From assembly GCA_947259705.1 (NCBI GenBank), contig CAMYNL010000002.1, positions 9,868 through 73,867 of the forward strand: a DNA stretch of 64,000 bases, written 5' to 3'. Below are positions 33,028 to 51,954 of the stretch, in pieces; position 1 is the stretch's first letter, and the number at the start of each line of letters is the position of its first letter. Position numbers and translations under genes: made by a program. The DNA comes from an uncultured Gammaproteobacteria bacterium (GTDB lineage: Bacteria > Pseudomonadota > Gammaproteobacteria > Arenicellales > JAANXG01). Below the pieces are notes generated by a model. That model was not told where the DNA came from. It did not search any database and was given only the letters and a program-made list of their open reading frames with translations.

Positions 33028-34548
33028 TGTATAGAGGCTTAGTCAGCCATTATGGCGAAGTGGGCTACGATGAGTTCAGAGCGTAAAGTACCCGGCAATC
33101 TTACAACAAATATGCAGACGCCGACAGTGAGAGGATAACCCGCTAACTATGAATCCCGGCCGCAATGCTGTCCACCGCTTCGTACACCGTAATGTGAGCC
33201 GAATACAAGCCACGGGTGACGACCCTGGGCCCGATCTACGACCCCCAAGAAGCTAAACTCATCTAGATTCCCACAGAATATCCACGCGGGTGAAGCGCTC
33301 GACATGCGCATGCTACGTCGATTTTTTACTGCATGCCCTGCATTCGGCCCCAGCTGAATTCGGGGACGCATGTCTCACTGTCAAGCCCAGCCACAGGCAA
33401 GCGCAGAAGGGTAAAATGATCAGTTACCCACCCACACATTTATACACGAAACACCGCTCTAACGCTGGACTGACGGAGCAACACGCCACTCAATCCACGG
33501 ACGCCGCGCCGACCCTCTGATCTCACGCGGTCGCAGCGCGCCCATTCCGATGCCGAGCTGAACCCTGGCGTTGAACATCTCCTTCGAGCGCAATTTTTTG
33601 ATTTGGGCGCCTTCCTGTGCCAGCCTGTTTACTTACCGATCACTCGATACATCGTCCACGACTTTAATACTAATGATCATTTGGACAGATCCATAGCGCA
33701 CTAGCGGATCAGCTCGCGTAGTCGCGCGACGGCCCTGGCCGCCTCAAGGAGGCGAGAAACAAGCCTTCAATTGCCTGTATCGGGTTTTCAGGCGTTACTG
33801 ATTTCTGTTGTGGATGCGAAAAAGCTTTGCTTGCAATCGCGACTACTTGCCGGAGAATCGCGCACCTGCACGCGCCGATCTACACCGCCCGTCGCCCCAT
33901 CACCGTAATCGTGCGTTAAGCGTCGACGGCTAAACGCCATGTTCGGTATTTAGCTCCGCAGGTACCCCATCCCGTCGTTCTACATTCTCACCTCCCGGTT
34001 TGCTTTTTTCCCGTCTGGTGGGCCCGCTCAAGTCTCTGGCTGGAATCCCGTTTGCGCGATGAGGGTCGGTTCGCCCCCTGAGTAGGGTACAAACTCCGCT
34101 AACCGCAAAGCTCGGCCGGGCGCGTTTCATAATTCGCCGCGGTTCCGACCACCGGCCCAGGCCTTGTCCGGGTGACCAGACGGCTCCTGGTCTACTACCG
34201 CCCGTCGTCGGCCGTAACCGGCCCTATCGTTGATCATCCCTAAAATCAATGTTTTTGGTATGGATATTGCTTCAGTTAATTGTTGTGCTAGTGATACAAA
34301 GAGTGGCTAAGCGGGTTCTTGCCCATTGTGTAACGAGCCAACGCAGTAAAGGCGCGGTATTCGATTAGAGCCGAATACTTCGGAGCACAATGGTCCGCGA
34401 GGTCAGAGCAATTGGCAATGAGTTAATTGTTGCTTCTATGAGACGCTCTGTTGCATTATTGGCACACTGCTGTTTAGTCGCGCAAGTTCTTGGCTGGCGG
34501 ACAGCAGGCAATTGAAATTTTCCAATTTGCTTGTGGAGGGTAATTCGA

Positions 34549-35775
34549 ATGGTTAATAAAAAATCGTTAGCAGGAGTCTGCGTAGCCGCAGCGACGATGA
34601 TGATTCCTGTGGCGCAGGCAGCAGAACATGAGGCGAAATGGGGTATTTCGGGCTGGATCAACGAAGGCATCACCTACTACGACGACGGCGTAGACAGCGA
34701 CGTAGCTCAGCTCTCCGATAACGGTACCACTCTAGGCAGTCGGATTACGCTCAACGGTTCTTTCATGCCTGCTGAAACCAATCTGACCGCGGGATTTGAA
34801 GTGATTCTCGAAGTCTTTTCCGGGGACCCGTACTTCGCCAATGGGACTCCGGTTACTCCACTGCTCTTCTCCAACCAGGACAATATCAACACCGTCAATG
34901 GTGCCGATATCGGTGTACTGGGCAGCAGTGTGAACATTGGTGGCAACTGGGGCAAGTTCACCATTGGTCTGCAGAGCATGCCTACGGACAATATTGCCGT
35001 ACTCGCGGATCCCTCGGGGACCATATGGTCCGGCATCTCCCCCGTCTTCCGCGGAAACGGGTTCCTGATTCGGGGACTGGGGGCGGGCACAACCAATGCG
35101 CGTTGGGGCGATTTTCTTCAATGCCTCACCGTACCCGGGCTGGGTATCGGTTTGGACTGTAACGGTATCTATCGTAATGGCGTTCGTTACGACCTGCCTG
35201 CGTTTGGTAATTTCAGTGTCGCGGTTGGTTGGGCGAATGACAAGGTCTACGATATTGCAGCGAAATACAGCGGTGAACTTGGTGGTTTGACAAGCAATAT
35301 TCACGCTGGCTATGCAAAAAACAATGACGGCGGCACCAACGTTAACGCGAGTGAGTCTGACGTTTTTCAGATTCAATGGGGCCTGCTGCATCCCGGCACC
35401 GGACTGTTCGGCCTGGCCACCTATCAAAAGGAAAATTCCGATAACGCGACCCCGGGGTCGGGGGATAGTGGTGATGCCTGGTACTTCAAGGGCGGTATCA
35501 AGAAGAAATGGGCCGCCTTCGGGCCGACATCGCTTTACATCGAGTACGGTTTGTACAACGACCAGTACGGCTTGGCTAACGCTGATGGCGTGTCCGGTTC
35601 TGAGGTCGATCGTATTGGTTTGGCCGTCGATCAGGAGATCGGCAGCAGATTGCGGATCTACGGCAAATGGAAACGGCTCAGCCTAGACGTAGACGGTAAT
35701 GCCACGGCCCAGACCTTGTATGGTGGGGCCGAGGACTTGAACCTGTTTACGCTTGGCTTCGTTGTGTTCTACTAA
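34549..35775 (+). CDS. outer-membrane porin, paralog of 17326-18393
   Basis: SD GGAGGG lies 8 nt upstream of the ATG at 34549. The signal peptide MVNKKSLAGVCVAAATMMIPVAQA shares the (V/I)PVAQAA motif with the other porin, and both share D(N/D)GV(N/D)SD. It ends ...LGFVVFY. Confidence 0.8.
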   Translation: MVNKKSLAGVCVAAATMMIPVAQAAEHEAKWGISGWINEGITYYDDGVDSDVAQLSDNGTTLGSRITLNGSFMPAETNLTAGFEVILEVFSGDPYFANGTPVTPLLFSNQDNINTVNGADIGVLGSSVNIGGNWGKFTIGLQSMPTDNIAVLADPSGTIWSGISPVFRGNGFLIRGLGAGTTNARWGDFLQCLTVPGLGIGLDCNGIYRNGVRYDLPAFGNFSVAVGWANDKVYDIAAKYSGELGGLTSNIHAGYAKNNDGGTNVNASESDVFQIQWGLLHPGTGLFGLATYQKENSDNATPGSGDSGDAWYFKGGIKKKWAAFGPTSLYIEYGLYNDQYGLANADGVSGSEVDRIGLAVDQEIGSRLRIYGKWKRLSLDVDGNATAQTLYGGAEDLNLFTLGFVVFY

Positions 35776-35870
35776 GGAATCGTGCGTAGGCCAACGGGTT
35801 TGCTGCGGCCACCCTCGGACGACTGCAAACGGGGCTAACGCCAAACCTGGCCTGGCTAAAGCAATACGAA

Positions 35871-35900
35871 AACGGCGCCTTACCGGCGCCGTTTTTTTTC
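35871..35900 (+). terminator. rho-independent terminator of the second porin gene
   Basis: aacggcgcc-ttacc-ggcgccgtt followed by tttttt. Confidence 0.85.
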
Positions 35901-36271
35901 AGCAGTAGGTTTATCGCAACAGTCCAGGGGCATTGCAACGGAATTCGGGGTGACAGACGCCGCTCTGGACTTCAAGGGCACATAGGTCGCTGTGGCTTGA
36001 ACGAAAGCTGGCCGCTACCCTTATTCTGCATTGTCGTTAGTGTGATCATTTATATATCCGTCTAACGAAAACGAAAGTACACCGGTCGCAGCGTCGAAAT
36101 GTTCTTCGGCATTACAGTCTGGCAGCTGGACGTAATTGAAGACCTGAATCCTTATCCGGACATCTTTGATCTACCAGACAAAAAATTAGAATCCCTGGCG
36201 AACGCCTGGTGGATATATTGAAAGCTGCGATAAAACCATCACAGCAACGCGACCTTAATTGATTATGTATA

Positions 36272-36736
36272 TCAGTCTCCAATCCATCTTCCTGCCTCCA
36301 TTGCACACTTGCGGATTGCTTCTGCGCGCTTGACGGGATCACCGTATATTTCCCACCCCAAAACAGCGGCATCAACCTCCAGGAGGAACTTTACAGCGCC
36401 GCGTATTTCATGAGGTTTGCCATATTTCCCGACAAAACAATCTGCCTGAGCCTCCTGTAATGCGGGATACAATTTGGGTGAAGCGAGAAGAGTATGGTTC
36501 AGCTTGATATGGGCATGGGCATGGGCCCGAAAGAAGCCGCAGGCGTCACCGATTTGTTCGCAGTATTCGGGATTATAAACAACGGCTGAACCCCAATTAG
36601 GATCAGCCCTTGCCATGGCAATGTCCGGCAGATTGGAGTCCTCGATTTCCCAAAACGGTACAACTGTCGCATTACTGCAGGACAGGAAAGCGACAACTCC
36701 CGCACACAGGATTCCGTTCCCTGGCTTGCTAAGCAT
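36272..36736 (-). CDS. hypothetical lipoprotein
   Basis: 154 aa with lipobox AFLSCS. It contains FFRAHAHAHIKLNH and several Cys. I recognise no family. AT-richer islet. Confidence 0.5.
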   Translation of the reverse strand: MLSKPGNGILCAGVVAFLSCSNATVVPFWEIEDSNLPDIAMARADPNWGSAVVYNPEYCEQIGDACGFFRAHAHAHIKLNHTLLASPKLYPALQEAQADCFVGKYGKPHEIRGAVKFLLEVDAAVLGWEIYGDPVKRAEAIRKCAMEAGRWIGD

Positions 36737-37072
36737 TTACGACAGATACAATCCAATGGGATGGAAAAGAAAGCGATTGTAGCTTGAGCCGACAAGGATC
36801 GTAAGAGTTCAACTCATCGAGGGCTCTATTGGGCTGAGAGTCGACGAAGAGATGTCGCAGTCTCGTCAATTCTCTGAGGATCTGGTCAGTCATCTGGATC
36901 ACGAATTAATAAACCTTGTTGCCTGATAGGTGCATTAGGTCAACGTGTCGCCGCCAAATTGGTAACTACCAGCCTATGGCGCTAACGCGAGTCGGGTTTG
37001 CAGCACATGCGTTTGCGGTCGATGGCCCGATATTGTGACGACTATTTCACCTAGCGATGCCCAGTGTTGCGA

Positions 37073-39469
37073 CTAGAAATTCATGCGCAGCCCAATCCAG
37101 GCGCCGAAGGGCGCCCCGGGCCCCACGAAACGCCGGGCTCCGGCGAACGCGGGACCCAGCACCTCCTCGGGTTCACCGAACACCCCGAAGGTCTCGTACT
37201 CGGTGTCGAACAGGTTGTTGACCCGCGCGAACAACTCGGCCCGCGGGGTGAAGCGGTAGGTGGCGTTCAGATTGAAGATGGCGAAACCGTCCAGGGGGTC
37301 GGCGGTGTTGGATTCGTCGCCGCGGAAGAACTGGTCGCTCTGCGTCATCATGTCGGCGCCGAGGGTAAGCCGGTCGTTGATGTCCCAGGCGGCACTGAGG
37401 CGCAGCAGGTGCTCGGGGATGCCCGGGATGCGGTTACCGGGGCTCACCACCAGGGCTTCCGGTGCCGGCCGGTCGGGGTCTGCCGGATCGCGCAGCGGGT
37501 GGTTGGGGGAGTTGACCAGGAACGCGTCGCGGAACTCGGCGTTGATGTAGGTGTAATGGGCAGCGTAACGCACCGACCCGGCGCTGCCGGTGAGGCTGAG
37601 TTCCAGTCCCCGGCGGCGAGTGTCGCCTATGTTGTCGAAGAAACCCTGGCTGGTGCTGCTGCCGTCGCTGATGAACAGGATATCGTCCTTGTTGAGGGCG
37701 TCGAAAAGCGCCACGCTCCAGCGCAGCCCGCCGATGGTGTCACCCCGCACTCCCAGTTCGAAGGTGCGCGTCACCACCTGATCCAGCGGCGGATCGTCAA
37801 CGAACGCGTTCGGCAGGCGACAGGGATCGTCCGGGTTGGCGCAAGTCAGTTCCGCCGGCGTGGGCGCCCGGCTCGACTCGGCGTAGGACCCGAACACAGT
37901 TATTCGCTCACGCGGGAACCAACTGACGGCGATCGCCGGATTCAGTCGGTCGAAATTGTGATCACCCGTCAGGCTGCTGTCATCGTCATCGTCCGCCGCC
38001 CCGTCGTCAACATCGTCCGCAGCGCCATCTTCGTCGTCGAGCTGATCGCGCAGCTTGATGTCCGTGTAGTTGTAACGCGCCGACAACGTGAGATCGAGCT
38101 GGTCCGACAGGGCGAACGTATCGCTGATGAACAGACCGCCGTGAAATGTCTCGGTATCGACGTCGGTGACGGAGGCCTGGTCGATGAAACCACTGCCGAT
38201 GGTGCCGCGGTCCCCGGTGAGGCGGGCCAGCTCAGTCCGTTGCTGGAAATTGGCATCACCGTAGTCAATGCTGGCACCGTAGAGGATGCGATGATTGCGT
38301 GCGCCGATCACCACATCACTGAAGGCCTGCAGGGAGCCTCCCAGGGCGTACTGGCTGGTTTCGCTGCTGTTCTCGGTAGCCCCCTCAACGTCTTCGGTAG
38401 CGGCGACGGGGTTGCCGAACTGGTCGAAGACGAGCTCCTCACCGTCGTCCTCCTCCTCGCAGACCAGGCCCTCGTTCTCCGGAGATTCGCATTCCTCGTA
38501 ATCACTGCCGTCACCGTTGAAGGTCTCGGTGTCGGTACTACGGTAATAGGCGATGCCGGTGAGCGTCGTACGTTCACTGGCCACCCACGAGGAGCGCAGG
38601 TTGAACTGCGCCAGACGGTTCTCGGTGATGTCCGGATGGGTGAAGACCGCTTCCCGGCCCTCGACTGCCAGCAGCTCCTCGGGGGCGGCGCCGTTGCCGC
38701 GCAGCTCGGAATCGGTCAGGGTGAGGGCAAGGTCGGTGTCCACGTTCTCACCCTGAAAGCTGTACTTGCCGAAGGCCTGCCCGAGTTCGCTGTCCGAGAA
38801 GTCCCGCCAACCGTCTTCGGTGAAACCCTCGGCGGTGAGGTACCAGGCACGGTCGCCGCGGTCGGCACCGGTTTCCGCCTGCAGCGCGAAACGCCCGAAG
38901 CTGCCGCCGTACGCCTCGACCCGCGTACCCGGATGGGTGAACCCGCTCTTGCTCTGCATGGCGATGGCGCCGCCCAGCGTGTTCAGCCCGAACAGGGGGT
39001 TCGAGCCAGGAACGAGTTCGAGCCGCGATACGGCCGAGTCGGGGATGGTGTCCCAGTTCACCACGTCCCCGAACAGTTCGTTGCGCCGCACGCCGTCCAC
39101 GTACACGGAGATGCCCTGTGGGAACCCGAGCAGGGAAGAACTGCCGAAACCGCGATAGAAAAGCTCCGGCTGGTAGGGGTTGTTCTGGGCGTCGTTGATG
39201 TGCACCGAGCCGAGGTTCTGGCGCATGAAGTCGCTGAGGTTGAGCGCGCCCGAGGCCCTGAGGTCCTCGTCGGTGGCCGCCTGCACATTGCCGGGAAACC
39301 GTTGGGCCTCGGTGGTGGCCGCGCCGCCCGGGGCGGTGATGATGATCTCCTCCTCCACCGGCTGCGCCATGGACGGGGCCCCGACCGCAAGCCCGTTGAG
39401 CACGGCCAGCGACAGCAGCACCGGCGGCGGGGCGCAATGTCTACGAACACCCGCGATCACGAAACGCAC
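37073..39469 (-). CDS. TonB-dependent outer-membrane receptor with two hyper-acidic inserts
   Basis: 798 aa with signal peptide, a plug region (ITAPGG...NLSDFMRQNLGSVHIN...YRGFG) and the C-terminal beta-barrel ending ...WIGLRMNF. The acidic inserts are GDGSDYEECESPENEGLVCEEEDDGEE and DDEDGAADDVDDGAADDDDD. Confidence 0.9.
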   Translation of the reverse strand: MRFVIAGVRRHCAPPPVLLSLAVLNGLAVGAPSMAQPVEEEIIITAPGGAATTEAQRFPGNVQAATDEDLRASGALNLSDFMRQNLGSVHINDAQNNPYQPELFYRGFGSSSLLGFPQGISVYVDGVRRNELFGDVVNWDTIPDSAVSRLELVPGSNPLFGLNTLGGAIAMQSKSGFTHPGTRVEAYGGSFGRFALQAETGADRGDRAWYLTAEGFTEDGWRDFSDSELGQAFGKYSFQGENVDTDLALTLTDSELRGNGAAPEELLAVEGREAVFTHPDITENRLAQFNLRSSWVASERTTLTGIAYYRSTDTETFNGDGSDYEECESPENEGLVCEEEDDGEELVFDQFGNPVAATEDVEGATENSSETSQYALGGSLQAFSDVVIGARNHRILYGASIDYGDANFQQRTELARLTGDRGTIGSGFIDQASVTDVDTETFHGGLFISDTFALSDQLDLTLSARYNYTDIKLRDQLDDEDGAADDVDDGAADDDDDSSLTGDHNFDRLNPAIAVSWFPRERITVFGSYAESSRAPTPAELTCANPDDPCRLPNAFVDDPPLDQVVTRTFELGVRGDTIGGLRWSVALFDALNKDDILFISDGSSTSQGFFDNIGDTRRRGLELSLTGSAGSVRYAAHYTYINAEFRDAFLVNSPNHPLRDPADPDRPAPEALVVSPGNRIPGIPEHLLRLSAAWDINDRLTLGADMMTQSDQFFRGDESNTADPLDGFAIFNLNATYRFTPRAELFARVNNLFDTEYETFGVFGEPEEVLGPAFAGARRFVGPGAPFGAWIGLRMNF

Positions 39470-39591: not shown

Positions 39592-39921
39592 TCAGCTGCC
39601 GGGCCCTGCCTCATCGGTGGCGGGCTGAAAGGGCCCGAGCGCGGCGTTCAGCGCGCCAATATACTCAATCAAGGCCGCATTCGCAGCCGCATCGGTCCGC
39701 GCCAGTTCGCCGATGGCCCGTTTGAAACGCGCCACCTGCTCGTCGTGATCACGCAGCAGCCGTGCCAGCAGGGCCTGCTCGGACTCGCTGGCACTGCCGT
39801 ATTTCTTGTATTTCGCCTCCAGGCCCTGCAGCACCAGAAAATGCCGTTGCCTGGTGGCATCCATGGCGTTGTAGGCCTGCCAGGCGTGGCGCGCGGCATC
39901 GGGTAGGGGTTGGTCGAACAT
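39592..39921 (-). CDS. hypothetical helical protein downstream of the aor operon
   Basis: 109 aa with no recognised motif. A GC-rich hairpin (39931-39961, 11-bp stem) separates it from the MoaD-like gene. Confidence 0.45.
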   Translation of the reverse strand: MFDQPLPDAARHAWQAYNAMDATRQRHFLVLQGLEAKYKKYGSASESEQALLARLLRDHDEQVARFKRAIGELARTDAAANAALIEYIGALNAALGPFQPATDEAGPGS

Positions 39922-39986: not shown

Positions 39987-40238
39987 CTAGCCGCCGGCCA
40001 CCGGCGGCCAGATGGCCAGCACGTCGTTTTCCGCCAGCACCGGCTGCTCGCGGCGCTCGGGCGCCACGTAGCCGCCGTTGATGAGCACCAGGTGCGCCAT
40101 CGGACGCGGCACCTTGAACATGTCGATCACCTGGTTCGGCGTGGCATCGTCCGGAACCTCCACCACGGTCGCGTTTTCACGCGACTCCGCCGGCAGCAGG
40201 TCCCCCAGGGTGGCGAAAAGCTTCAAAGTAATCTTCAT
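39987..40238 (-). CDS. MoaD/ThiS-family ubiquitin-like sulfur carrier (ends ...PPVAGG)
   Basis: MKITLKLFATLGDLLP...VLINGGYV...DVLAIWPPVAGG*. Its ATG overlaps the upstream TGA (ATGA). 83 aa. Confidence 0.8.
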   Translation of the reverse strand: MKITLKLFATLGDLLPAESRENATVVEVPDDATPNQVIDMFKVPRPMAHLVLINGGYVAPERREQPVLAENDVLAIWPPVAGG

Positions 40239-41497
40239 ACCACATAGGCATTGAAGCCCACGGCCTGGGTGCGCGCCAGGTACGCCTCCATGATGCGCGT
40301 CGGGTCCTGGATCAGCCGGTCTTTCCATTCGCCCAGCCGGGTACGGCTCTGGATCAGGCCGCGCAGCACGCCGACATTATCGGTGAGACCAAGACTGGAG
40401 GCGCCCACCAGCAAGTCATCCGCGAACTGCAGGTTGAGGTACTTGAACCCGCCCGGATCGTTCAGCTCGGTGCTTTCGCCGCCGTCCACCCCCATCCACA
40501 TGCCGAAGGAACTGGAGATCAGCCCCATGGTGTCGAGCACGTTCATGTTGACGCTGCCCTGGTGGACCTGGGACATACCCGCCATGTTGCTGGCGGCTAT
40601 GCGCCCGTGGTCCGCGGCGGTGGGCTGGATCGCCTGCACCGAGTACTCGCCGGTGGAGAAATCCTTGCCCTGGCACACGTCGCCGGCGGCATAGATGCCC
40701 GGCTGGCTGGTCTCAAGATGGGTATCCACGAGGATGCCGTGGTCGGTGTCGATGCCCGACCCCTCCAGAAAACCGATATTGGATCGCACGCCGGTGGCGG
40801 AGATGACCATGTCGGCGCCGGCGGTCTCAGCGTTGCTCAACACCACGTTCAGCGCGCCGCCGGAGGCCTCGATGGCCTCCACCTTGGTCGAGGTATGGAC
40901 GCGCACGCCCTTATGCTCGCACCAGGCCTTGATCAGTCCGCCCGAAGCCTCGTTCATCATCCGCGGCACCATGCGGTTCTCCATCTCCACGACGGTGAGG
41001 TCAACCCCGCTGCTGGCCAGCGCTTCAAGTATGATACAGCCGATGAACCCGGCCCCCATCAGCACCACCCGGTTGCCCGGCTGGCACAGGCTGACGATGT
41101 TTCGTGCGTCCTCCAGGGTCCAGCAGTTGTAGACGCCCTGTGACTCCACGCCCGGCACCGGCGGCGTCGCAGGACTGGAGCCGGTGGCGATGAGCAGACG
41201 GTCGAAGGCGACGGATCCACCACCGGCCAGGCTGAGTTGCTTGCCGGCGGCGTCCACCGTGGCGACGCGATCCTGTACCAGGTCTATGCCGAGCCCGGCA
41301 AAATGATCCGCGCCCTTGCGCAGATGGGTTCCCTTCTCGTCTATCTGCTTGATCAGGAAATAAGGGATGGCCATGCGCGAGTAGGGCGGTTCCGGCTCGT
41401 CACCGATAATACTTATCTTGGCATCGGCGTCGAGCCGCCGTATGTGCTCGGCAGCGACGACCCCCGCTGGTCCCGCACCAATGATTACGTGATGCAT
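40235..41497 (-). CDS. aorC: FAD/NAD(P)-dependent pyridine nucleotide-disulfide oxidoreductase family, AorC-like subunit
   Basis: 420 aa with MHHVIIGAGPAGVVAAEH (FAD GxGxxG) and a second Rossmann VVLMGAGFIGCI. Its position after the AOR gene matches the AorABC operons. Confidence 0.75.
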   Translation of the reverse strand: MHHVIIGAGPAGVVAAEHIRRLDADAKISIIGDEPEPPYSRMAIPYFLIKQIDEKGTHLRKGADHFAGLGIDLVQDRVATVDAAGKQLSLAGGGSVAFDRLLIATGSSPATPPVPGVESQGVYNCWTLEDARNIVSLCQPGNRVVLMGAGFIGCIILEALASSGVDLTVVEMENRMVPRMMNEASGGLIKAWCEHKGVRVHTSTKVEAIEASGGALNVVLSNAETAGADMVISATGVRSNIGFLEGSGIDTDHGILVDTHLETSQPGIYAAGDVCQGKDFSTGEYSVQAIQPTAADHGRIAASNMAGMSQVHQGSVNMNVLDTMGLISSSFGMWMGVDGGESTELNDPGGFKYLNLQFADDLLVGASSLGLTDNVGVLRGLIQSRTRLGEWKDRLIQDPTRIMEAYLARTQAVGFNAYVV

Positions 41498-41520
41498 CGT
41501 GCACTCTCCATATTCTTTGG

Positions 41521-41550
41521 TAAAAAACGGGTGGGTCCTGAGGACCCACC
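41521..41550 (-). terminator. intrinsic terminator/attenuator between aorB and aorC
   Basis: The minus strand reads GGTGGGTCC-tca-GGACCCACC followed by cgtttttt. It is followed by SD GGAGA and the aorC ATG. Confidence 0.6.
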
Positions 41551-41597
41551 ACTGTTCGGCAATCTACACAAACAGCCTTTTGTTTTAGAGGAGGAGA

Positions 41598-43448
41598 TCA
41601 CAAACCCAGTCGTTGTTTGGTCTCATCGGTGACGACGCCGTCCGCCGTCCAGCCGCGGATCTTGTAGTACTCCGGCAGCATCTTGCCGAGTTCGTTCACC
41701 TTGCCCTGGGCCGGACCGGCGTTCGCAGCTTCTTCCAGCAGGCGCTTGGGCAGCGTGTCATCCTTGCCCGTCACACCGGCCAGGCGGTTGAACTCGCGTT
41801 CCATGTTCCAGATCCGTTCCCCCAGTTCCACCAGCTTCTCGGTGGTCCACCCGCCCTCGCAGGCGGCGTCGAGCTGCGGCGCCACGTCGTCCAGGGTCCA
41901 GGCAAAGGAGGTGAACACGCACAGGCCGCTGGAATCGAAGGCGGCGGTGGCGTCCTGGAAGGCCTTGACCAGCTCCGCCTTGCCCTCGGTGGCCAGCGGA
42001 TCGGTCTTTTCCGGGATGCCGAGGATCTCGGAGGCGACGGTGTAGCCGCGCAGGTGGCAGGCGCCGCGGTTGGAGGTGGCGTAGGCCAACCCCATGCCCT
42101 GGATGCCGCGCGGATCGTAGGCCGGAAATTCCTGGCTCTTCACGGTCATGGAGAGCTCGGGATGACCATACTTCTCGCACATCCTCCTGGAGCCCAGCGC
42201 CAGGTCGCGGCCGAAACCCTCACCCGCGGCCACCATCTCGACGCCATGCACCAGCGCCTCGGCGGAACCGAAATTGTAGGCCATGCCACCGGTGTGCTCA
42301 TTGGTGATCACGCCCATCTCGTAGAGCTCCATCGCCGCGGCGACGGTAGCGCCGAAGGAGATCGGATCGATGCCGTCCTCGTTGCACACGAAGTTGGCAT
42401 AGGTGATCGCATCGAGGTCATCAACGCCGTTGTCCGAACCCAGCGACCAGGCCGCCTCGTATTCCAGCCCGCCGGAGGCCTTCCAGTACTCGGGCTTGTT
42501 CTTGATGGTGAAGTGGCCCTGGTCGACGGTGGAGATGCGCCCGCAGGCGATGGTGCAGCCGAAACATGCCGCGTTGGTGGTCAGGTTGGGCTGACCATCG
42601 CTCGCGCGTGGCTCGTGCATCGCCTCGCCGGAGATCTTATGGGCGCCCTCGAACTGAGTCTCGCGCATGTTGCGGGTAGGCATCGCCCCCGACTCGTTTA
42701 TGACGTTCATCAACACCTGGGTGCCGTACTTGGGCAGGCCCTCGCCGGTCACGGCATTCTCGCGCAGCACCCGCTTGCCCTCCTCGGTGGCCTGCAGGAA
42801 ACGCATCGGGTCCTTGATATTGCCGACGCCCTTAGTGCCTCGAGCCACCACGGCCTTGAGGTTCTTCGACGCCATCACGGTGCCGACCCCGGAGCGGCCG
42901 GCGGCGCGGTGCAGGTCATTGACCACCGCGGAATAGAGGCAGCCGTTCTCCGCCGAGCGGCCCACCAGGGCGATCTTGATCAGGGCGTCCTGGTGCTTCT
43001 TGTGCAGGATCTCGTCGGCCTCCCACACCGATTTGCCCCAGATGTCACCGGCATCCATCAATTGGACGCTGTCGTCATGCACATACAGGTATACGGGCTT
43101 CGGCGACTTGCCCTCGAAGATGATCATGTCCCAGCCGGCGGCCTTCAGCTCGGCGCCGAAATAACCGCCGGAGTTGGAGCAGGCCACGGTGCCGGTGAGG
43201 GGGCTCTTGGTCACCACCGAGTACCGGCCGCCGGTGGAGGCCATGGTGCCGGTGAGGGGACCGGTGGTGACGATGAACTTGTTGTCCGGCCCCAGCGCGT
43301 CACAGGTGGGATCGACCTCCTCCACCAGGTACTTGGTCGCCAGCCCGCGCTGACCCAGGTACTGCTGGGCCCATTCCATGTTGAGCGGCTCTTCGGTGAT
43401 CTTGCCCTCGGTGAGGTTCACCCGCATCACTTTGTTGGTCCATGCCAT
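41598..43448 (-). CDS. aorB: tungsten-type aldehyde:ferredoxin oxidoreductase family protein (AorB-like)
   Basis: 616 aa from the ATG at 43448 (SD GAGGAGG). MAWTNKVMRVNLTEGKITEE...QYLGQRGLATKYL and the overall length are typical of the AOR family. Confidence 0.9.
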   Translation of the reverse strand: MAWTNKVMRVNLTEGKITEEPLNMEWAQQYLGQRGLATKYLVEEVDPTCDALGPDNKFIVTTGPLTGTMASTGGRYSVVTKSPLTGTVACSNSGGYFGAELKAAGWDMIIFEGKSPKPVYLYVHDDSVQLMDAGDIWGKSVWEADEILHKKHQDALIKIALVGRSAENGCLYSAVVNDLHRAAGRSGVGTVMASKNLKAVVARGTKGVGNIKDPMRFLQATEEGKRVLRENAVTGEGLPKYGTQVLMNVINESGAMPTRNMRETQFEGAHKISGEAMHEPRASDGQPNLTTNAACFGCTIACGRISTVDQGHFTIKNKPEYWKASGGLEYEAAWSLGSDNGVDDLDAITYANFVCNEDGIDPISFGATVAAAMELYEMGVITNEHTGGMAYNFGSAEALVHGVEMVAAGEGFGRDLALGSRRMCEKYGHPELSMTVKSQEFPAYDPRGIQGMGLAYATSNRGACHLRGYTVASEILGIPEKTDPLATEGKAELVKAFQDATAAFDSSGLCVFTSFAWTLDDVAPQLDAACEGGWTTEKLVELGERIWNMEREFNRLAGVTGKDDTLPKRLLEEAANAGPAQGKVNELGKMLPEYYKIRGWTADGVVTDETKQRLGL

Positions 43449-43461
43449 GTCGTGTACCTCC

Positions 43462-43980
43462 TCAGGCGCGCTGGTAAGAAGAGACGTCTTTCGACGCCGG
43501 CGTGTTGAAGCTCGCCTCGACCGGCTGGCTGCGCTGGGCCCAGGCGCGCATGCGGTCCAGGCCCGTGTGATCTCCATCCACGTAGGTGATGGCACCGGTC
43601 GGGCAGGCCTTCGCGCACCAGGGGTCGCCGCCGCACAGGTCGCACTTCACCACCTTGCCCGATGCCGAGTTGTAGTTCACGGTGCCGAAGGGACAGGCGA
43701 TGGTGCAGACCTTGCAGCCCACACAGGTATCCTCGAGCACCTCCTTGGCGCCGGTGGTCTCATTCACCACGATCGCCTCGACCGGGCAGGCATGCATGCA
43801 CCAGGCCTCGTCGCACTGGGTGCAGGTGTACGGCGCGAAACGGCCCGTGTCATGAAACATGAAGACCTTGATGCGGGACTTGGAGGGGTTGAACACCCCC
43901 TCGTTCTCGTAGGAACAGGCCATCTCGCACTGCAGGCAACCAGTGCATTTTTCTGGCTCCAGCTTGAGCGCTCTCAGCAT
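43462..43980 (-). CDS. aorA: 4Fe-4S polyferredoxin-like electron-transfer subunit (AorA-like)
   Basis: 172 aa with four Cys clusters (CTGCLQCEMAC, CTQCDEAWCMHAC, CVGCKVCTIAC, CDLCGG..WCAKAC). SD GGAGGAG. Confidence 0.85.
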   Translation of the reverse strand: MLRALKLEPEKCTGCLQCEMACSYENEGVFNPSKSRIKVFMFHDTGRFAPYTCTQCDEAWCMHACPVEAIVVNETTGAKEVLEDTCVGCKVCTIACPFGTVNYNSASGKVVKCDLCGGDPWCAKACPTGAITYVDGDHTGLDRMRAWAQRSQPVEASFNTPASKDVSSYQRA

Positions 43981-44079
43981 TGCAAAACTCCTCCGGATTT
44001 TCTCGTGGCTCTCGGTGGCTGAATATCATACAGGGTCAGCGCGGCGTTGCCGCGTAAACCGTGATAGCCATACGTTACC

Positions 44080-44095
44080 TGCAACTTGCGTGCCA
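44080..44095 (-). promoter_or_regulatory. sigma-54 promoter of the aor operon
   Basis: The minus strand reads TGGCACGCAAGTTGCA, a perfect TGGCACG-N4-TTGCA, about 100 nt upstream of the aorA ATG. Confidence 0.75.
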
Positions 44096-44179
44096 TGGAT
44101 GCGCGGCGCCTGTCTCGCGCCTAAACAGGCGGCCGGGGGCCTGGTCAGCCTCAGATTTGTTGCATACGCGCCTGGCGAT

Positions 44180-44195
44180 GTCCCAATAATGGGAC
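44180..44195. promoter_or_regulatory. perfect palindrome, candidate enhancer (UAS) for the AcoR-like activator
   Basis: GTCCCAATAATGGGAC lies about 90 bp upstream of the -24 element of the aor sigma-54 promoter. Confidence 0.3.
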
Positions 44196-44208
44196 ACCCG
44201 CGCGGGCT

Positions 44209-44649
44209 TTACCCGTCGTTGATCTGCAGGCGGACCTCGGTCACCTGGTCGCCGGCGACGAAGAAGGCCCGCAGCCGGTCTCCGACCGCGGCGTGGGGCG
44301 CGGCGATCACGTACAGGGCATCCGGATAGGCATGCAGCGCCAGGTCGGTGGCCGACGGATAGGCCGGCGCCTCGACATGGGAATGGTAGATGCCCAGCAG
44401 ATCCTCGCCCTGCTCCGCCATCGCCCGCATTGCCGCCAGCTGGCTGCGCGGTTCCATATCGAAATGCTGCCGGCGGTCGGCGGCGGCGTTGCGGGCGGGA
44501 TAGGCAGCGCGCACCATGCCGCCTTCGCCGCCGATCAGGCCGCACACCTCCTCGTCCGGGCTGCCGGCGGCATGGGTCAGGATGGCTTCCGCCACCGCCC
44601 GGGGGAAGGCGACCAGCGCCTGCGGCTGCCGGCGATCCGCGTCAGCCAT
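44209..44649 (-). CDS. JAMM/MPN+ (Mov34) metalloprotease-family protein
   Basis: EEVCGLIGG ... GIYHSHVEAPAYPSATD carries the E...HxH-x7-S-xx-D JAMM motif. The ATG at 44649 is preferred over the ORF-track start at 44742. Confidence 0.75.
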   Translation of the reverse strand: MADADRRQPQALVAFPRAVAEAILTHAAGSPDEEVCGLIGGEGGMVRAAYPARNAAADRRQHFDMEPRSQLAAMRAMAEQGEDLLGIYHSHVEAPAYPSATDLALHAYPDALYVIAAPHAAVGDRLRAFFVAGDQVTEVRLQINDG

Positions 44650-44830: not shown

Positions 44831-44846
44831 TGGCACGGTGTTTGCT
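44831..44846 (+). promoter_or_regulatory. sigma-54 promoter-like element directly upstream of the AcoR-like regulator gene
   Basis: TGGCACGGTGTTTGCT is a perfect TGGCAC-N5-TTGC. Its 3' end lies 20 nt before the ATG at 44867. Confidence 0.55.
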
Positions 44847-44866: not shown

Positions 44867-46912
44867 ATGAAAAGTACAACGAGGATGGACCACATCAGCA
44901 GGATCTCACGGGTCGCCAGGCTCGGCACGGCAGGCGACGAAGCCGCCCTCGAAGAGCAGGGTCTCGACGACCAGATCGTCTCCTCCTGGCATCGTTGTCT
45001 GTCCACCTATGGCATCGATCCGGTTTCCAGTCAGTCGGTAGTGGTGCTCGACTCGCCCGAGTTGAAAGAACACCAGGAACGGCTGGATCACATGCTCAAG
45101 ATCGCCGACGCCGAGATGCAGCTCGTCTACGAGGCGGCCGCCGGATCCGGCTACGCGATCATTCTCACCGATGCCCAGGGCGTCATCCTGCATCATGTCT
45201 CGGACCCGCGCCTGGAGCGGGAATTCCGCGACGCGGGCCTGTGGGTGGGGGCCAGCTGGGACGAGGAAGCGCAGGGCACCAACGGCATCGGCACCTGCAT
45301 CATCGAAGGGAAACCCATCACCGTGCACCGGGACGAGCACTTCCGCAGCCAGAACATCGACCTCACCTGCTCCGCGGCGCCGATCCGCGATCCGCGCGGT
45401 GAGCTTATCGCCGTGCTGGACTCGTCGGCGTGCACCAACGAGGATTCGCGCAATTCACAGACCCATGTGCGCGCGCTGGTCAGCACCTCCGCGCGGCTGA
45501 TCGAAAATCGTAATTTCCTTTTCGAATTCCGCAACAAGAAGGTGCTGCGTTTCCACAGCCGTCCCGAGTACGTCGGACTGCCGAACGAGGCGATGCTGGC
45601 GCTGGACGGGGACTGCCAGATCCTGGCGGCCAACGGCGTGGCGGTGGATTTTCTCAACGCCCATTCTCGCCGCGACCTGATAGGCAGGTCCTTGTCGGAG
45701 GTCCTCGACGCCAAGTCCACCCGCCTGATCGACGAGATGCGGTCAAAGATGGGGACGCTGCTTCCGATCCGGGGCCGCGCCACCGGGCGGCGCTTCTTCG
45801 CCATGCTGCATGCGCCCACGGCTCCCACCCCGGTTGCCCGGGTCGAGACGCCGGCGCCAACACGGCGTGACAAGTCACGTCTAGACCTGCGCGCGGTTGC
45901 CGGCCGGGACCCGCACATGAACTACAACGTGCGTTGCGCCGAGCGGATCATGAACAAGAACGTGCCCATCATCATCGAGGGCGAAACGGGTACCGGCAAG
46001 GAAGTGTTCGCGCTGGCCATCCACCTGGCAAGCGATCGGCGTGACCAGCCTTTCGTAGCGCTGAACTGCTCCGCGATTCCGGAGTCGCTGATCGAAAGCG
46101 AGTTGTTCGGCTACAAGCACGGCGCATTCACCGGCGCGCGGCGGGAGGGCATGAAAGGCAAGATACTGCAATCCAGCGGCGGCACCCTGTTCCTGGACGA
46201 GATCGGCGACATGCCGCTGCCGTTGCAGACCCGCCTGCTGAGATGCCTGGAGGAAGGCGAGGTCGTCCCGCTGGGCGGCGACAAATCCATATCGGTCGAC
46301 CTCAACGTCATCAGCGCCACCCACCGCGACCTGGAGTCATTGGTGGAGAGGGAGACTTTTCGCGAGGACCTCTATTACCGCCTCAACGGCATCAGCCTGA
46401 CGCTGGCGCCACTGCGTGAACGCGAGGACCGGGAGCAGTTGATCGAGTCTATCGTCGCCCTGGAAAACGAGAGCGACCAGGCGGTCAGGATCGACGACGA
46501 GGCCATGGACAAGCTGGTGCGCTTTGACTGGCCGGGCAATATTCGTCAGCTCCGCAATGTGATCCGCACCGCCTTGGCGATGGCCGACAACCATGTACTC
46601 AGGCTTGCCGACCTTCCCGGAGCGGTGGTCAATGCCCGGGAGCGCGCTAGCCCCGCGGGCGCGGCAAGGAGCCGTTTCGTCACCCAGTCGGCCGGCGCCT
46701 CGGTGCCGGAGACGGTGGGTCCCCGCGCGGCGGGTACCGCGGCCGAGGCGGAACTGAACCCCCTGGAGGTGGCGGAGAAGGAGGCCATCCTGATGGCGCT
46801 CGCCGCCAACTGCTGGAACATCACCAATACCGCCGCCGCGCTGGATATGAGCCGCAACACCCTGTACCGGAAACTGAAAAGGCACGGTCTTCCCACCACA
46901 CGTCCGGCCTGA
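44867..46912 (+). CDS. sigma-54-dependent transcriptional activator, AcoR-like (GAF sensor + AAA+ + Fis-type HTH)
   Basis: The N-terminal region IVSSWHRCLSTYGIDP is AcoR-like. It has the AAA+ Walker A motif GETGTGKE, the GAFTGA loop (HGAFTGA), and the C-terminal HTH NITNTAAALDMSRNTLYRKLKRHG. The start could instead be 44885. Confidence 0.85.
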   Translation: MKSTTRMDHISRISRVARLGTAGDEAALEEQGLDDQIVSSWHRCLSTYGIDPVSSQSVVVLDSPELKEHQERLDHMLKIADAEMQLVYEAAAGSGYAIILTDAQGVILHHVSDPRLEREFRDAGLWVGASWDEEAQGTNGIGTCIIEGKPITVHRDEHFRSQNIDLTCSAAPIRDPRGELIAVLDSSACTNEDSRNSQTHVRALVSTSARLIENRNFLFEFRNKKVLRFHSRPEYVGLPNEAMLALDGDCQILAANGVAVDFLNAHSRRDLIGRSLSEVLDAKSTRLIDEMRSKMGTLLPIRGRATGRRFFAMLHAPTAPTPVARVETPAPTRRDKSRLDLRAVAGRDPHMNYNVRCAERIMNKNVPIIIEGETGTGKEVFALAIHLASDRRDQPFVALNCSAIPESLIESELFGYKHGAFTGARREGMKGKILQSSGGTLFLDEIGDMPLPLQTRLLRCLEEGEVVPLGGDKSISVDLNVISATHRDLESLVERETFREDLYYRLNGISLTLAPLREREDREQLIESIVALENESDQAVRIDDEAMDKLVRFDWPGNIRQLRNVIRTALAMADNHVLRLADLPGAVVNARERASPAGAARSRFVTQSAGASVPETVGPRAAGTAAEAELNPLEVAEKEAILMALAANCWNITNTAAALDMSRNTLYRKLKRHGLPTTRPA

Positions 46913-46962: not shown

Positions 46963-47001
46963 TGCAGGGAAGGCGCGACCCTTAGCAGAGAACCCTGATT
47001 G

Positions 47002-47916
47002 ATGCAGATACTGGTGCTCGGTTCCGCCGCCGGCGGAGGATTCCCGCAATGGAACTGCAACTGTGAGATGTGCTCGGGCGTGCGCAGCCAGCGCATTCGG
47101 GCACGCCCGCGCAGCCAGTCGTCGATCGCGGTGAGCAGAAACGGCGTCGACTGGGCGCTGATCAACGCCTCGCCGGACATCCGACAGCAGCTGCTCGCGA
47201 ACCCGGCACTGCAGCCGGCGCGCCAGAAACGCGACACCGGTGTGCGCGCGGTGGTGCTGATGGACAGCCAGATCGACCATACCACCGGGCTGCTGACGCT
47301 GCGCGAGAACCAGGAGCCGCTGCAGCTGTACTGTACCGCCATGGTCCACCAGGACCTCACCACGGGGTTTCCGGTCATCGACATGCTGCAGCATTACTGC
47401 GGCGTGGAGTGGCACGAGATCGACCTCGATGCGGCGAAGTTTTCGGTGCGCGCGGTGGACGGCATCGGCTTTCGCGCCGTGCCCCTGTCCAGCAAGGCGC
47501 CGCCCTATTCGCCGCACCGCAACGACCCGCATCCCGGCGACAATATCGGGCTGCTCATGGAGGACATGGAAACCGGAAAAACGGCATTCTATGCCCCGGG
47601 GCTGGCGGCCGTGAGCGAGGACCTGGTGCCATACATGGCGTCGGCCGACTGCCTGCTGGTGGACGGCACCTGCTGGACCAACGATGAGATGCCGCAACGC
47701 GGCGTGGGCGCCAAGCTCTCCCTGGACATGGGCCACCTGCCGCAGTCCGGCGACGGAGGCATGATCGAGCAGCTGCGGCGGTTCGATCGCCAGCGCAAGA
47801 TACTCATCCATATCAACAATACCAACCCGATCCTCGAAGAGGACTCGACGGCCCGGGCGCGGCTCGACGCCGTCGGCATCGAAGTGGCGTGGGACGGGAT
47901 GACGCTGGAACTGTGA
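47002..47916 (+). CDS. pqqB: PQQ biosynthesis protein B
   Basis: [24 protein letters not shown]... is a typical PqqB N-terminus with MBL-like fold. Confidence 0.95.
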
Positions 47917-47918
47917 GT

Positions 47919-48665
47919 ATGAACCCCCCTGCCGCCGCCGACCTGCCGCCCTGGTCTCGAGCAGAATTCGCGGACCGGCTGCGTGCCTACGGGGCACGCT
48001 ACCATATCCACCATCCTTATCAACGCATGATGGCCGCGGGCGAGTTGAGCAGGGAACAGATACAGGGATGGGTGGCCAACCGTTACTACTACCAGGTCAG
48101 CATCCCGATCAAGGACGCCAACCTGCTCGCCAACTGTCCGGACCGGGAGACCCGCCGCCTGTGGGTGCAGCGCATACTCGACCATGATGGCTATGGCGGC
48201 GAGTCCGGAGGCATCGAGGCCTGGCTGGCGCTGGGGGAAGCGGCGGGGCTGGACCGCGACACGCTCGAGTCCCAGCGCATGGTGCTGCCGGGGGTGCGTT
48301 TCGCGGTTGACGCCTACATCAATTTCGTCCGCCGCGCCGACTGGCACGAAGGGGCCGCGTCTTCGTTGACCGAACTGTTCGCGCCGGAGATCCACAAGCA
48401 ACGGCTCGACAATTGGCCGCAACACTATCCATGGGTTGACCAGGCCGGGTTTCAGTATTTCCGCAAGCGACTCGCCGAGGCCCGTCGCGACGTCGAACAC
48501 GGCCTGGAACTCACGCTCGACTACTTCAACACACGAACGCTGCAGGAGCGGGCACTGGAACTGCTGCAGTTCAAGCTGGACATACTTTGGACCATGCTGG
48601 ATGCCATGTACATGGCGTACGTGAACCAGATGCCGCCTTATTTCAACTGCGAGGAGATTCGATGA
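47919..48665 (+). CDS. pqqC: pyrroloquinoline-quinone synthase PqqC
   Basis: MNPP...[33 protein letters not shown]... The ATG is 2 nt after the pqqB stop. Confidence 0.95.
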
Positions 48666-48955
48666 ACCAAGTATCCGTAGACAGTGTTTACCGGCTGTCT
48701 CCCACCCACCGCCTGCAATGGGAGGCGGCGCAGAATTCAGATGTACTCTTGTATCCGGAAGGGATGGTAACGCTCAACCAGAGCGCCAGCGAGATCCTCA
48801 AGCATTGCGACGGCTCGCGCAGTGTCCAGGAGTTGGTGCAGGAACTGGAACGCAAGTTCTCGGCCCGGGACCTTACCCAGGAGGTCATCAGTTTCCTCGA
48901 AGCCGCCCTGGAGCGCGGCTGGATCAAGCGCGCCGAAAACGCATCCGGTCAGTGA
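48662..48955 (+). CDS. pqqD: PQQ biosynthesis peptide chaperone PqqD
   Basis: 97 aa: [54 protein letters not shown] overlap with pqqC. Confidence 0.9.
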
Positions 48956-49701
48956 CGCGGCCCGACCCTCACCACCGGCTGCTGCTGCAATGGTTGCTGT
49001 TCGCCGGTATCCTGGTGTTTGCCATCTGGGTGGCCTGGGACCATGGCCTGCTGGAGAAAGTGTACCGCAGCGACCCGACACGGTTGTCGCTGGTAATTTC
49101 ACTGCTGTTTGTGGCCGCCACGGTTCACTGCGCCGCCCGCGCGCTGTATCTTTCGCGGCAACTCAACCACATTAATGCCATTCGGCACCTCACCGCACAA
49201 CAGCGCTTTGCGCCGCGGTTGCGGGACGGACAACTGGTCATCGGCAACGCCCATGCCGCCGGGTCCCTGCCCGCCGTCTATCTCGCCGCGATCCTTGCCA
49301 AGTACCAGGCCAAAGCGCCGGTGGAACTTCGCGGCCTGGAACATGCGCAGCTAACCGAGGTGCTCGCGGAACAGGCGCGCGGCCCCCACGAGACCGGGTG
49401 GTTCGTCACCGGATTGCTGTTGAAGCTGGGACTGCTGGGCACGGTGATCGGATTCGTACTGATGCTCGGGTCGGTCTCGGGCATCGAGTCCTTCGACGTG
49501 CAGGACGTGCAGGCAGTGCTCAAGAACATGACGGTGGGGATGGCGGTTGCACTGAACACCACGCTCATCGGCTTGCTCGGCAGCATGCTGCTCGGCTTCC
49601 AGTACCTGCTGCTGGACCGCGGCGCCGACAAACTGGTGGCTGACACGGTGCATTATGCCGAGACCAGCCTGCTGCCCGTGCAGCCTACGCAAAACGGGTA
49701 G
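48952..49701 (+). CDS. MotA/TolQ/ExbB-family proton-channel protein (cassette gene 1)
   Basis: About 249 aa from the GTG at 48952, which overlaps the pqqD TGA (GTGA). It has four predicted TM helices. The C-terminal blocks LGLLGTVIGFVLML and GMAVALNTTLIGLLGSMLLGF are typical of ExbB/TolQ. Confidence 0.75.
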   Translation: MTRPDPHHRLLLQWLLFAGILVFAIWVAWDHGLLEKVYRSDPTRLSLVISLLFVAATVHCAARALYLSRQLNHINAIRHLTAQQRFAPRLRDGQLVIGNAHAAGSLPAVYLAAILAKYQAKAPVELRGLEHAQLTEVLAEQARGPHETGWFVTGLLLKLGLLGTVIGFVLMLGSVSGIESFDVQDVQAVLKNMTVGMAVALNTTLIGLLGSMLLGFQYLLLDRGADKLVADTVHYAETSLLPVQPTQNG

Positions 49702-49709
49702 GCCTCGGT

Positions 49710-50318: not shown

Positions 50319-50827
50319 ACGAGGCAATCATAGGACTGACCGTAGCCTACGTCGCGTTGGCCGGCTTCGTAATCGGGCTCAGCATCTTTTCACGCTGGCC
50401 ATACTGGGTGAAACTCATCTCGGTGGCCGGCGTGTGCGGCCTTTATTTCCTTACCTACGCCTCGTTCAAGGGCCTGCTCGGCTGGCCGACCCGGGCCGAA
50501 CTGCCGGCGCACTTCATGTTGCTGGCGTCCTATGTCAGCGAACCCGACAAGGCCGGCGGCAGCGCGGGAAGTATCCAGATCTGGGCGGCATCACTGGCAG
50601 GTAACCGGCCGGCCGAGGCGCCGCGCGCCTATCACCTCGACTATGACGCAGAACTGCATGGTCAGCTGGAAGAGGCAGACAAGCGCATGCGACAGGGCAT
50701 CATCCAGCTCGGGCGCAAGCAGGATGCAGCGACTGCGGGCGACTCCGGTGACCCTTCCCGTTTCGCCCGCAACCCTTACCGCATCGTGATCTTCGATCTG
50801 CCAGATCCGGAGCTGCCCGAGAAGTGA
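50315..50827 (+). CDS. hypothetical membrane protein (cassette gene 3)
   Basis: 170 aa. Its ATG overlaps the upstream TGA. It has about three N-terminal TM helices and a charged soluble tail. Confidence 0.6.
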   Translation: MNEAIIGLTVAYVALAGFVIGLSIFSRWPYWVKLISVAGVCGLYFLTYASFKGLLGWPTRAELPAHFMLLASYVSEPDKAGGSAGSIQIWAASLAGNRPAEAPRAYHLDYDAELHGQLEEADKRMRQGIIQLGRKQDAATAGDSGDPSRFARNPYRIVIFDLPDPELPEK

Positions 50828-51938: not shown

Positions 51939-51954
51939 GCAGTCCGGCATGCGG

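Follow-up and report, generated by a model that had tools for sequence, protein, structure and literature searches.

An aorABCD aldehyde oxidoreductase operon within the PedH-type alcohol-oxidation island of an uncultured gammaproteobacterium

Here we describe a four-gene operon, aorABCD, for a putative aldehyde oxidoreductase (AOR) encoded in a 64,000-nucleotide stretch of DNA from an uncultured gammaproteobacterium of the Arenicellales (GenBank assembly GCA_947259705.1, contig CAMYNL010000002.1, positions 9,868 to 73,867). This stretch is referred to below as the window, and all coordinates are positions within it; L-numbers (L071, L095 and so on) denote the related loci with which it was compared. 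The aor operon sits mid-way in a complete ped-type island, in which genes for a lanthanide-type alcohol dehydrogenase (ADH) dependent on pyrroloquinoline quinone (PQQ) are found together with pqq genes, a ped-type transporter and sigma-54 activators. No gene for an NAD-dependent aldehyde dehydrogenase (ALDH) was found in the window, and in related loci either an ALDH gene or aorABCD lies just downstream of the ADH operon. These findings suggest that the AOR takes the place of the usual ALDH in this system.

The four aor genes lie on the minus strand (Table 1), with a gap of 13 nt between aorA and aorB and a 4-nt overlap between the start of aorD and the stop of aorC. An initial annotation, made from the nucleotide sequence, had described this operon as a polyferredoxin gene, an AOR-family gene of 616 codons, a FAD/NAD oxidoreductase gene and a MoaD-like gene in the arrangement of Aromatoleum aromaticum AorABC, driven by a perfect sigma-54 promoter. 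All four genes were recovered at the positions it gave, the gene order is the same as in A. aromaticum, and a consensus sigma-54 element is present upstream of aorA. The likeness to A. aromaticum extends to the proteins, since for each Aor subunit the cryo-electron microscopy structure of the A. aromaticum AOR (8C0Z) is far ahead of other solved structures. AorB matches 8C0Z_A along its entire length with 68.5% identity (991 bits, versus 681 for 9MQX and 607 for the P. furiosus AOR), and this best-match comparison across solved structures puts it closest to the bacterial AorB clade. The best match of AorA is 8C0Z_C (256 bits, 71.5% identity), with 16/16 cysteines conserved, and that of AorC is 8C0Z_E (445 bits, 53.5% identity over 411 residues). 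Both Pfam domains of AorB are full-length, with scores of 262 bits for AFOR_N and 471 bits for AFOR_C. The AorB motif CFGCTIAC is the same in 8C0Z_A, and GICVFTSF of that structure is the counterpart of the distal GLCVFTSF; by analogy with AOR structures, we take the cysteines of this C-x2-C-x3-C motif, plus the distal Cys, to be the iron-sulfur ligands. Judged by sequence, aorABCD is the ortholog of A. aromaticum aorABC(D) and encodes an AOR-family aldehyde oxidoreductase. Enzymes of this family are tungsten-dependent and, to our knowledge, the A. aromaticum enzyme is the only bacterial three-subunit AOR to have been characterised. In metagenome annotations (L001, L002 and L004-L006) aorA is called as a 153-aa protein; the 172-aa start used here is the better one, because the shorter form loses the first CxxCxxC, which aligns with 8C0Z_C.

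The ADH of the island is of the PedH type. It scores 794 bits against TIGR03075 (cut-off 480), and its best match in the PDB is PedH (6ZCV/6ZCW, 887 bits), ahead of the Ca-type ExaA (1FLG, 742 bits) and of XoxF (414 bits). The stretch NDGWDYDGV aligns with HDGWDFDGV of PedH, and the vicinal Cys-Cys pair is present. In enzymes of the lanthanide type, the extra Asp of this D-x-D motif coordinates the metal. The motif has been called diagnostic for the lanthanide type (PMC11996626), and the motif and the similarity to PedH together predict a lanthanide-dependent enzyme, as the initial annotation had proposed. Downstream in the ADH operon, the cytochrome c550 PedF (TIGR04494), the SoxYZ-like carrier (TIGR04557) and the relay-system zinc metallohydrolase 1 (TIGR04558) were all identified above the NCBIfam cut-off. 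The ADH gene is on the same strand as aor, on the downstream side of aorD and at a distance of 8.3 kb from it, so that the earlier description of the two as neighbours is correct as to the shared island and not as to direct adjacency. Between them lie a TonB-dependent receptor gene, an open reading frame (ORF) of 109 codons and a low-GC stretch of about 5 kb.

A search of the window for the sigma-54 consensus TGGCAC-N5-TTGCW returned three perfect matches, against 0.05 in shuffled sequence, and perfect sites stand 100-113 nt upstream of both aorA (TGGCACgcaagTTGCA) and the ADH gene. With a -24/-12 element in place and an enhancer-binding protein encoded nearby, the aor operon is predicted to be sigma-54-dependent. 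Upstream of each of the two promoters there is also a TGT-N12-ACA dyad, TGTCCCATTATTGGGACA on the aor side and the similar TGTCACAAATCTGATACA (~32047-32064) on the ADH side, and these are candidate activator-binding sites. A shared activator site could not be made out from them, as the dyads of the two window promoters stand at unequal distances and are looser than those of relatives, where GTGTCA-N6-TGACAC dyads were found upstream of sigma-54 sites in ALDH-type ADH loci only (L113, L128, L108, L154 and L110). Alternatively, TGTCCCATTATTGGGACA could form the stem of a terminator for the JAB gene that precedes the aor promoter.

The reference clusters for this type of alcohol oxidation include a gene for an NAD-dependent ALDH, pedI in the ped cluster of Pseudomonas putida and exaC in exaABC of Pseudomonas aeruginosa. 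The window has none: the PF00171 Aldedh domain is absent from every called ORF of the 64 kb, and the paired Glu/Cys active-site signatures of ALDH are absent from its six reading frames, in agreement with the initial annotation. That annotation had also pointed out that a conventional ALDH encoded just outside the window and carrying the flux would speak against its reading. On metagenome and metagenome-assembled genome (MAG) contigs identical to the window, no ALDH is recorded in the 10 kb past either end, where RND efflux and multicopper oxidase genes lie on one side and ccmFG, an amino-acid ABC transporter and an IclR gene on the other. The span free of ALDH thus comes to about 84 kb, window and flanks together. 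MAG GCA_945787095.1 and JGI metagenomes are the only sources in which exact copies of the window proteins were found.

Independent support for the idea that the AOR stands in for an ALDH came from the relatives of the ADH. We examined its 80 closest metagenomic relatives, which are 67-87% identical to it; D-x-D was found in 73 of them and a non-D-x-D form in none. Gene content was counted over the 37 loci that span 12 kb or more, and an ALDH gene is present in 12 of these; nine loci overall have it immediately downstream of the ADH operon. In L154, for example, a GAF-type sigma-54 activator gene and a one-mismatch sigma-54 site are followed by genes for the ADH, a cytochrome c, a binding protein, a PF00171 ALDH (525 bits) and an acetyl-CoA synthetase. 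In L105 and L106, a perfect sigma-54 site and the ADH gene are followed on the same strand by aorABCD, which starts 10-70 nt past the ADH ORF, occupies the slot of the aldehyde-oxidising gene of the sister loci and appears to be co-transcribed with the ADH. Because ALDH and aorABCD alternate in this way just downstream of the ADH operon, the proposal that the AOR replaces the usual ALDH is supported. In L095, ADH and aorA/aorB are divergent, and their common spacer of 585 bp holds two perfect sigma-54 sites, one for each direction. Altogether, pairing of ADH and aor recurs in at least four further gene arrangements from different lineages. None of the 37 loci contains both an ALDH and an AOR, and a member of the activator family of the window (40-50% identity to the 44885-46912 protein) is encoded beside the ADH in 10 of the 37, irrespective of which aldehyde enzyme the locus encodes.

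The view from the AorB side is broader. At least 598 stretches that encode AorB relatives came out of a scan limited to one genome per species, and the counts given here are for the best 80. These are 73-80% identical to the window protein (best genome match 80%) and come nearly all from Gammaproteobacteria MAGs; in a plasmid collection no close ortholog was found, the best match being about 50% identical. The aorA-B-C-D cassette is kept in nearly all of the best 80, with aorD placed 3' of aorC in 78 of 86 loci. Within 10 kb, genes for a PedA2-like beta-propeller and a PedA1-like binding protein are divergent from aorA in 22 loci, and the other recurrent neighbours are MoaA (24 loci), pqqB, pqqC or pqqE (12 loci), an ABC ATPase, and a LapD_MoxY_N histidine kinase with a LuxR-type regulator (12 loci). 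One or more ped/PQQ markers occur within 10 kb in 20 of the 48 loci with full flanks (~40%), and these loci are scattered over the AorB tree. L071, from the Granulosicoccaceae, has genes for the ADH, cytochrome c, binding protein, SoxYZ-like carrier and metallohydrolase in the order of the window's operon, followed directly by a sigma-54 activator gene and then aorABCD; L081 likewise holds both ADH and aor. An ALDH gene lies within 10 kb in only 1 of the 80 AorB loci.

Table 1. Coordinates of the aor operon and of the surrounding ped/pqq island in the 64-kb window
Feature	Position	Strand	Description
Rest of ADH operon	24873-29738	-	PedF, SBP_bac_3, 184-aa ORF, SoxYZ-like carrier, metallohydrolase, rhodanese, Sel1
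PedH-type PQQ ADH, lanthanide D-x-D	29960-31705	-	581 aa
Sigma-54 promoter of ADH operon (predicted)	31818-31833	-	perfect; 113 nt upstream of ATG
TonB-dependent receptor	37073-39469	-	Plug + TonB_dep_Rec; downstream of aor genes
109-aa ORF	39592-39921	-	no Pfam/NCBIfam match; downstream of aorD
aorD	39987-40238	-	83 aa; Pfam ThiS, ThiS/MoaD family; C-terminus GG
aorC	40235-41497	-	420 aa; FAD/NAD(H) subunit; Pyr_redox_2
Terminator-like hairpin GGTGGGTCCTCAGGACCCACC and T-run, aorB-aorC spacer	41530-41550	-	9-bp stem
aorB	41598-43448	-	616 aa; catalytic subunit; AFOR_N + AFOR_C
aorA	43462-43980	-	172 aa; small subunit, four [4Fe-4S]; 4Fe-4S dicluster Pfam domains, 16 Cys
Sigma-54 (-24/-12) promoter of aor (predicted), TGGCACgcaagTTGCA	44080-44095	-	perfect consensus; 100 nt upstream of aorA ATG
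Dyad TGTCCCATTATTGGGACA (TGT-N12-ACA)	44179-44196	-	candidate activator-binding site, read from sequence
JAB/MPN gene (desampylase-like)	44209-44649	-	Pfam Prok-JAB; upstream of aor promoter
Sigma-54 site at activator gene	44831-44846	+	perfect; 39 nt upstream of activator
Sigma-54 enhancer-binding protein	44885-46912	+	675 aa; GAF, AAA+, HTH_8; divergent from JAB-aor, upstream of pqqB
pqqB, pqqC, pqqD	47002-48949	+	NCBIfam equivalogs above cut-off
Near-consensus sigma-54 site	51745-51760	+	one mismatch; 104 nt upstream of pqqA
pqqA	51864-51938	+	motif-based identification
pqqE	51994-53199	+	NCBIfam above cut-off
PedC, PedA1, PedA2, PedB (ABC transporter of PQQ-ADH systems)	56100-59866	-	TIGR03861, TIGR03863, TIGR03866, TIGR03864 above cut-off

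Several features inside and around the aor operon deserve comment. The aorB-aorC spacer (41498-41597, minus strand, 100 nt) has a minimum free energy of -33.8 kcal/mol (z-score -3.2). Spacers at this place in orthologous loci are mostly 50-350 nt long and often have a very stable fold, with a canonical T-run in 5 of 70. As a speculation, the hairpin may lower the amount of AorC relative to AorAB, which by analogy could fit an AorAB filament capped by AorC. Downstream of the operon, Pfam and NCBIfam searches of the window ORFs found no second MoaD-like gene (aorE) after aorC; the 109-aa ORF, considered as an aorE candidate, was rejected for want of any family match, and up to 11 loci have a homolog of it (38-51% identity) on the downstream side of aor. 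In 39 loci (for example L008, 14447-14752) aorD is followed by a different ORF of about 100 codons, also without a Pfam match, whose product ends in RGGG; it is absent from the window, and this family may represent aorE or another sulfur-carrier-like factor. The TonB-dependent receptor falls below every NCBIfam equivalog cut-off, that of PqqU included. By analogy with methylotroph systems, it may serve uptake of a lanthanide chelator (PMC6839425). Homologs of it (35-39% identity) are present in about nine of the 80 AorB loci, some 5 kb upstream of aorA and beside PedA1A2-like genes.

Upstream of the aor promoter, the JAB gene has as its best NCBIfam match an archaeal desampylase (95 bits, cut-off 130), and the best NCBIfam match of AorD is SAMP1, below the cut-off. 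AorD needs no processing, because its GG is already C-terminal. Membership of the JAB gene in the aor operon was rejected, as the aor sigma-54 promoter lies downstream of it and the gene is absent from other lineages; among the AorB loci it is confined to copies of the window's own lineage. An Rfam scan of the whole window gave no match, and hence no molybdenum or tungsten cofactor (Moco/Wco) riboswitch in the aorA leader, and a tRNA search of the window found none.

In the rest of the island, the pqq genes are split (46999-53199): after pqqBCD come an ExbB-like gene and three small ORFs without a family match, and then pqqA-pqqE. Beyond pqqE lie genes for a histidine kinase and an NtrC-type sigma-54 response regulator, which brings the sigma-54 activators of the island to two. 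A second ABC importer (59863-62395), SsuABC/NitT-TauT-like and consisting of a 327-aa binding protein, a BPD_transp_1 permease and an ATPase, is encoded beside pedA1A2BC. The low-GC stretch between the ADH gene and the TonB-dependent receptor gene (~32000-37000; GC 52-57% versus ~65%) encodes a SHOCT-domain protein and ORFs without a family match, and one metagenome contig ends within it. The closest relative of the ADH (L091) likewise has a gene for a SHOCT protein immediately upstream (4920-5735), so that the SHOCT gene of this stretch may belong to the cluster. There is also an orphan XdhC-family gene (23667-24656), near which no gene for a xanthine-oxidase-family enzyme was seen; its similarity to the XdhC-related aldehyde oxidoreductase maturation factor is weak and below the cut-off.

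Given the orthology to the A. aromaticum enzyme and the island context, we think it probable that aorABCD provides the NAD-linked, cytoplasmic aldehyde-to-acid step of a sigma-54-controlled regulon for PedH-type alcohol oxidation. In such a pathway, the periplasmic lanthanide/PQQ ADH would oxidise alcohols and deliver electrons to the cytochrome c550 PedF, and the aldehyde would pass into the cell. There AorB would oxidise the aldehyde at a tungsten cofactor, with electrons running along the iron-sulfur chain of AorA to the FAD subunit AorC and from there to NAD+; AorD, as a MoaD-like factor, would take part in maturation of the cofactor. The main flux would go through the AOR. One of the two sigma-54 activators would turn on the ADH, aor and pqqA-pqqE promoters jointly, the adjacent GAF-type protein being the likelier of the two, and the three transcription units would then be co-induced. 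The known activity of the A. aromaticum enzyme speaks for such a role. The AOR of that organism, purified from a mutant without the pathway ALDH, accepts a broad range of aldehydes with NAD+, and although it has a half-life of 1 h in air when purified, it is unaffected in cell extracts (PMC6365974). It also takes over the bulk of aldehyde oxidation when the dedicated dehydrogenases are missing (PMC10413684).

A number of observations nevertheless weigh against this assignment. The ADH and aor operons of the window are well separated and have promoters of their own, and among the 48 full-length AorB loci the ADH gene itself lies within 10 kb of aorB in just two. A sigma-54 site (at most one mismatch) is found upstream of aorA in only 1 of 79 orthologous loci, and L071 has none, so that sigma-54 control of aor would be lineage-specific and confined to the ADH-linked group. 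The mutual exclusion of ALDH and AOR, which comes down to 12 ALDH loci and three AOR contigs from two lineages among the 37, is suggestive and not statistically strong. No tungstate transporter is encoded in the window, and NCBIfam does not class the second ABC system as one for tungstate or molybdate. In A. aromaticum, moreover, the AOR is mainly a detoxifying side enzyme, with removal of surplus aldehyde proposed as its primary role (PMC10413684), and enzymes of the PedH/ExaF type are themselves able to oxidise aldehydes (PMC11996626, PMC12510462). The last two points, together with the separate promoter, the 8.3-kb distance and the rarity of a nearby ADH gene, would suit an AorABC that acts as a general enzyme of aldehyde detoxification or overflow, induced by aldehyde stress via the adjacent activator, with the main flux carried by a distant NAD-ALDH or by periplasmic PedH-type oxidation. 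We consider this, the main rival reading, rather unlikely: sister loci hold an ALDH in the very position of aorABCD, the aor genes of L105/L106 are apparently co-transcribed with the ADH, sigma-54 promoters are paired at ADH and aorA in both the window and L095, and no ALDH is found across some 84 kb.

The position of aor among the ped/pqq genes might also be incidental: together with the GAF-type activator, aor could form a module of its own, acting for instance on aromatic aldehydes that arise from amines or amino acids. The A. aromaticum AOR does act in the degradation of phenylalanine, benzylamine and benzyl alcohol (PMC10413684); in the window, the ADH is set apart from the TonB receptor-aor block by a stretch of low GC, and both the JAB gene and the ORF of 109 codons are specific to the lineage. 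Chance adjacency sits poorly, however, with the ADH-aor pairing in at least four other arrangements and in different lineages, with the same activator family beside the ADH in 10 of 37 related loci, and with the presence of ped/PQQ genes close to aor in some 40% of the full-length loci, scattered over the AorB tree, and we regard it as improbable. Still less credible is operation in the reductive direction, from acid to aldehyde, to feed alcohol formation. AORs can reduce acids when given donors of very low potential (PMC6365974, PMC9295118), but the reverse rates are very low and require strong reductants (PMC6365974). The neighbouring genes specify an oxidative, cytochrome c-linked periplasmic system, and domain searches of the called ORFs found no hydrogenase or low-potential ferredoxin module in the window.

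Beyond this one locus, we propose tentatively, and with less confidence than we have in the role of the window's operon, that a dedicated two-metal route, in which a periplasmic lanthanide/PQQ ADH is followed by a cytoplasmic tungsten AorABC, is a widespread and interchangeable alternative to ADH with NAD-ALDH in Gammaproteobacteria that are uncultured and for the most part aerobic or microaerobic (Granulosicoccaceae, Thiotrichaceae and relatives). The initial annotation had called the combination of the two enzymes unusual. This was overstated, as the pairing recurs in several uncultured lineages and the sequence of PQQ-ADH and tungsten AOR has already been proposed for Cycloclasticus (PMC12510462). 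It is this recurrence of aorABCD at the place of ALDH in PedH-type clusters that points to a concrete physiological role for the widespread three-subunit AOR. In a 2026 classification of tungsten oxidoreductases (WOR), few clades have a defined physiological role (PMC13328260); the role proposed here, if true, would be the first to be defined for Class III. The carriers would in that case need lanthanides as well as tungstate to grow on alcohols or volatile organics, with consequences for trace-metal ecology and for cultivation of the many uncultured carriers, and the biocatalytic use of an oxygen-tolerant, NAD-linked AOR would be affected as well.

Comparison with known systems brings out what is shared and what is particular to the window. 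Like AorABC(DE) of A. aromaticum EbN1 (8C0Z; Class III WOR), the window system has three subunits encoded in the same order and followed by a MoaD-like aorD. The A. aromaticum operon has two MoaD-like maturation genes, aorD and aorE, after aorC (PMC6365974); in the window no aorE was found, and the 109-aa ORF and the TonB-dependent receptor gene are found there instead. Tungsten, the NAD+ link and filaments are features of the A. aromaticum AOR that its window counterpart may share. The setting also differs, since the EbN1 enzyme is a side enzyme of anaerobic aromatic catabolism, whereas the aor genes of the window lie within a ped/PQQ island under predicted sigma-54 control. With the ped cluster of P. 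putida KT2440, the window shares a PedH-like ADH, PedF and pqq genes in one island, and a PedA1A2BC of the same composition (PMC6839425). Unlike that cluster, it lacks a Ca-type PedE paralog and has a TonB-dependent receptor gene, and unlike both ped and exa it has aorABCD in place of a PedI/ExaC-type NAD-ALDH and sigma-54 activators in place of the LuxR-type PedR2/ExaE.

A functional precedent comes from Cycloclasticus, where the pathway proposed for the oxidation of pentane and short-chain alkanes runs from a PQQ-ADH to a tungsten AOR (PMC12510462, citing Rubin-Blum et al. 2017). The two-step logic is the same, with PQQ-ADH yielding the aldehyde and a tungsten-type AOR the acid. That proposal concerns a hydrocarbon degrader and is based on gene presence and proteomics; we did not find gene clustering, sigma-54 wiring, the lanthanide type of the ADH or positional replacement of ALDH described in connection with it. 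Likewise, in the searchable literature, where the Cycloclasticus paper was the single find on a tungsten AOR with such an ADH, we found no account of aorABCD within PedH-type clusters, of its occupation of the ALDH slot, of its sigma-54 wiring or of its recurrence across lineages. Also close are the sister loci of the L154 type, which share with the window the ADH clade (70% identity, D-x-D), the activator family and a sigma-54 site upstream of the ADH; they differ in carrying a PF00171 ALDH in the slot where L105/L106 hold aorABCD, and in the window aorABCD stands elsewhere in the island. All parts of the system belong to described families, and it is the arrangement of the cluster that appears to be new.

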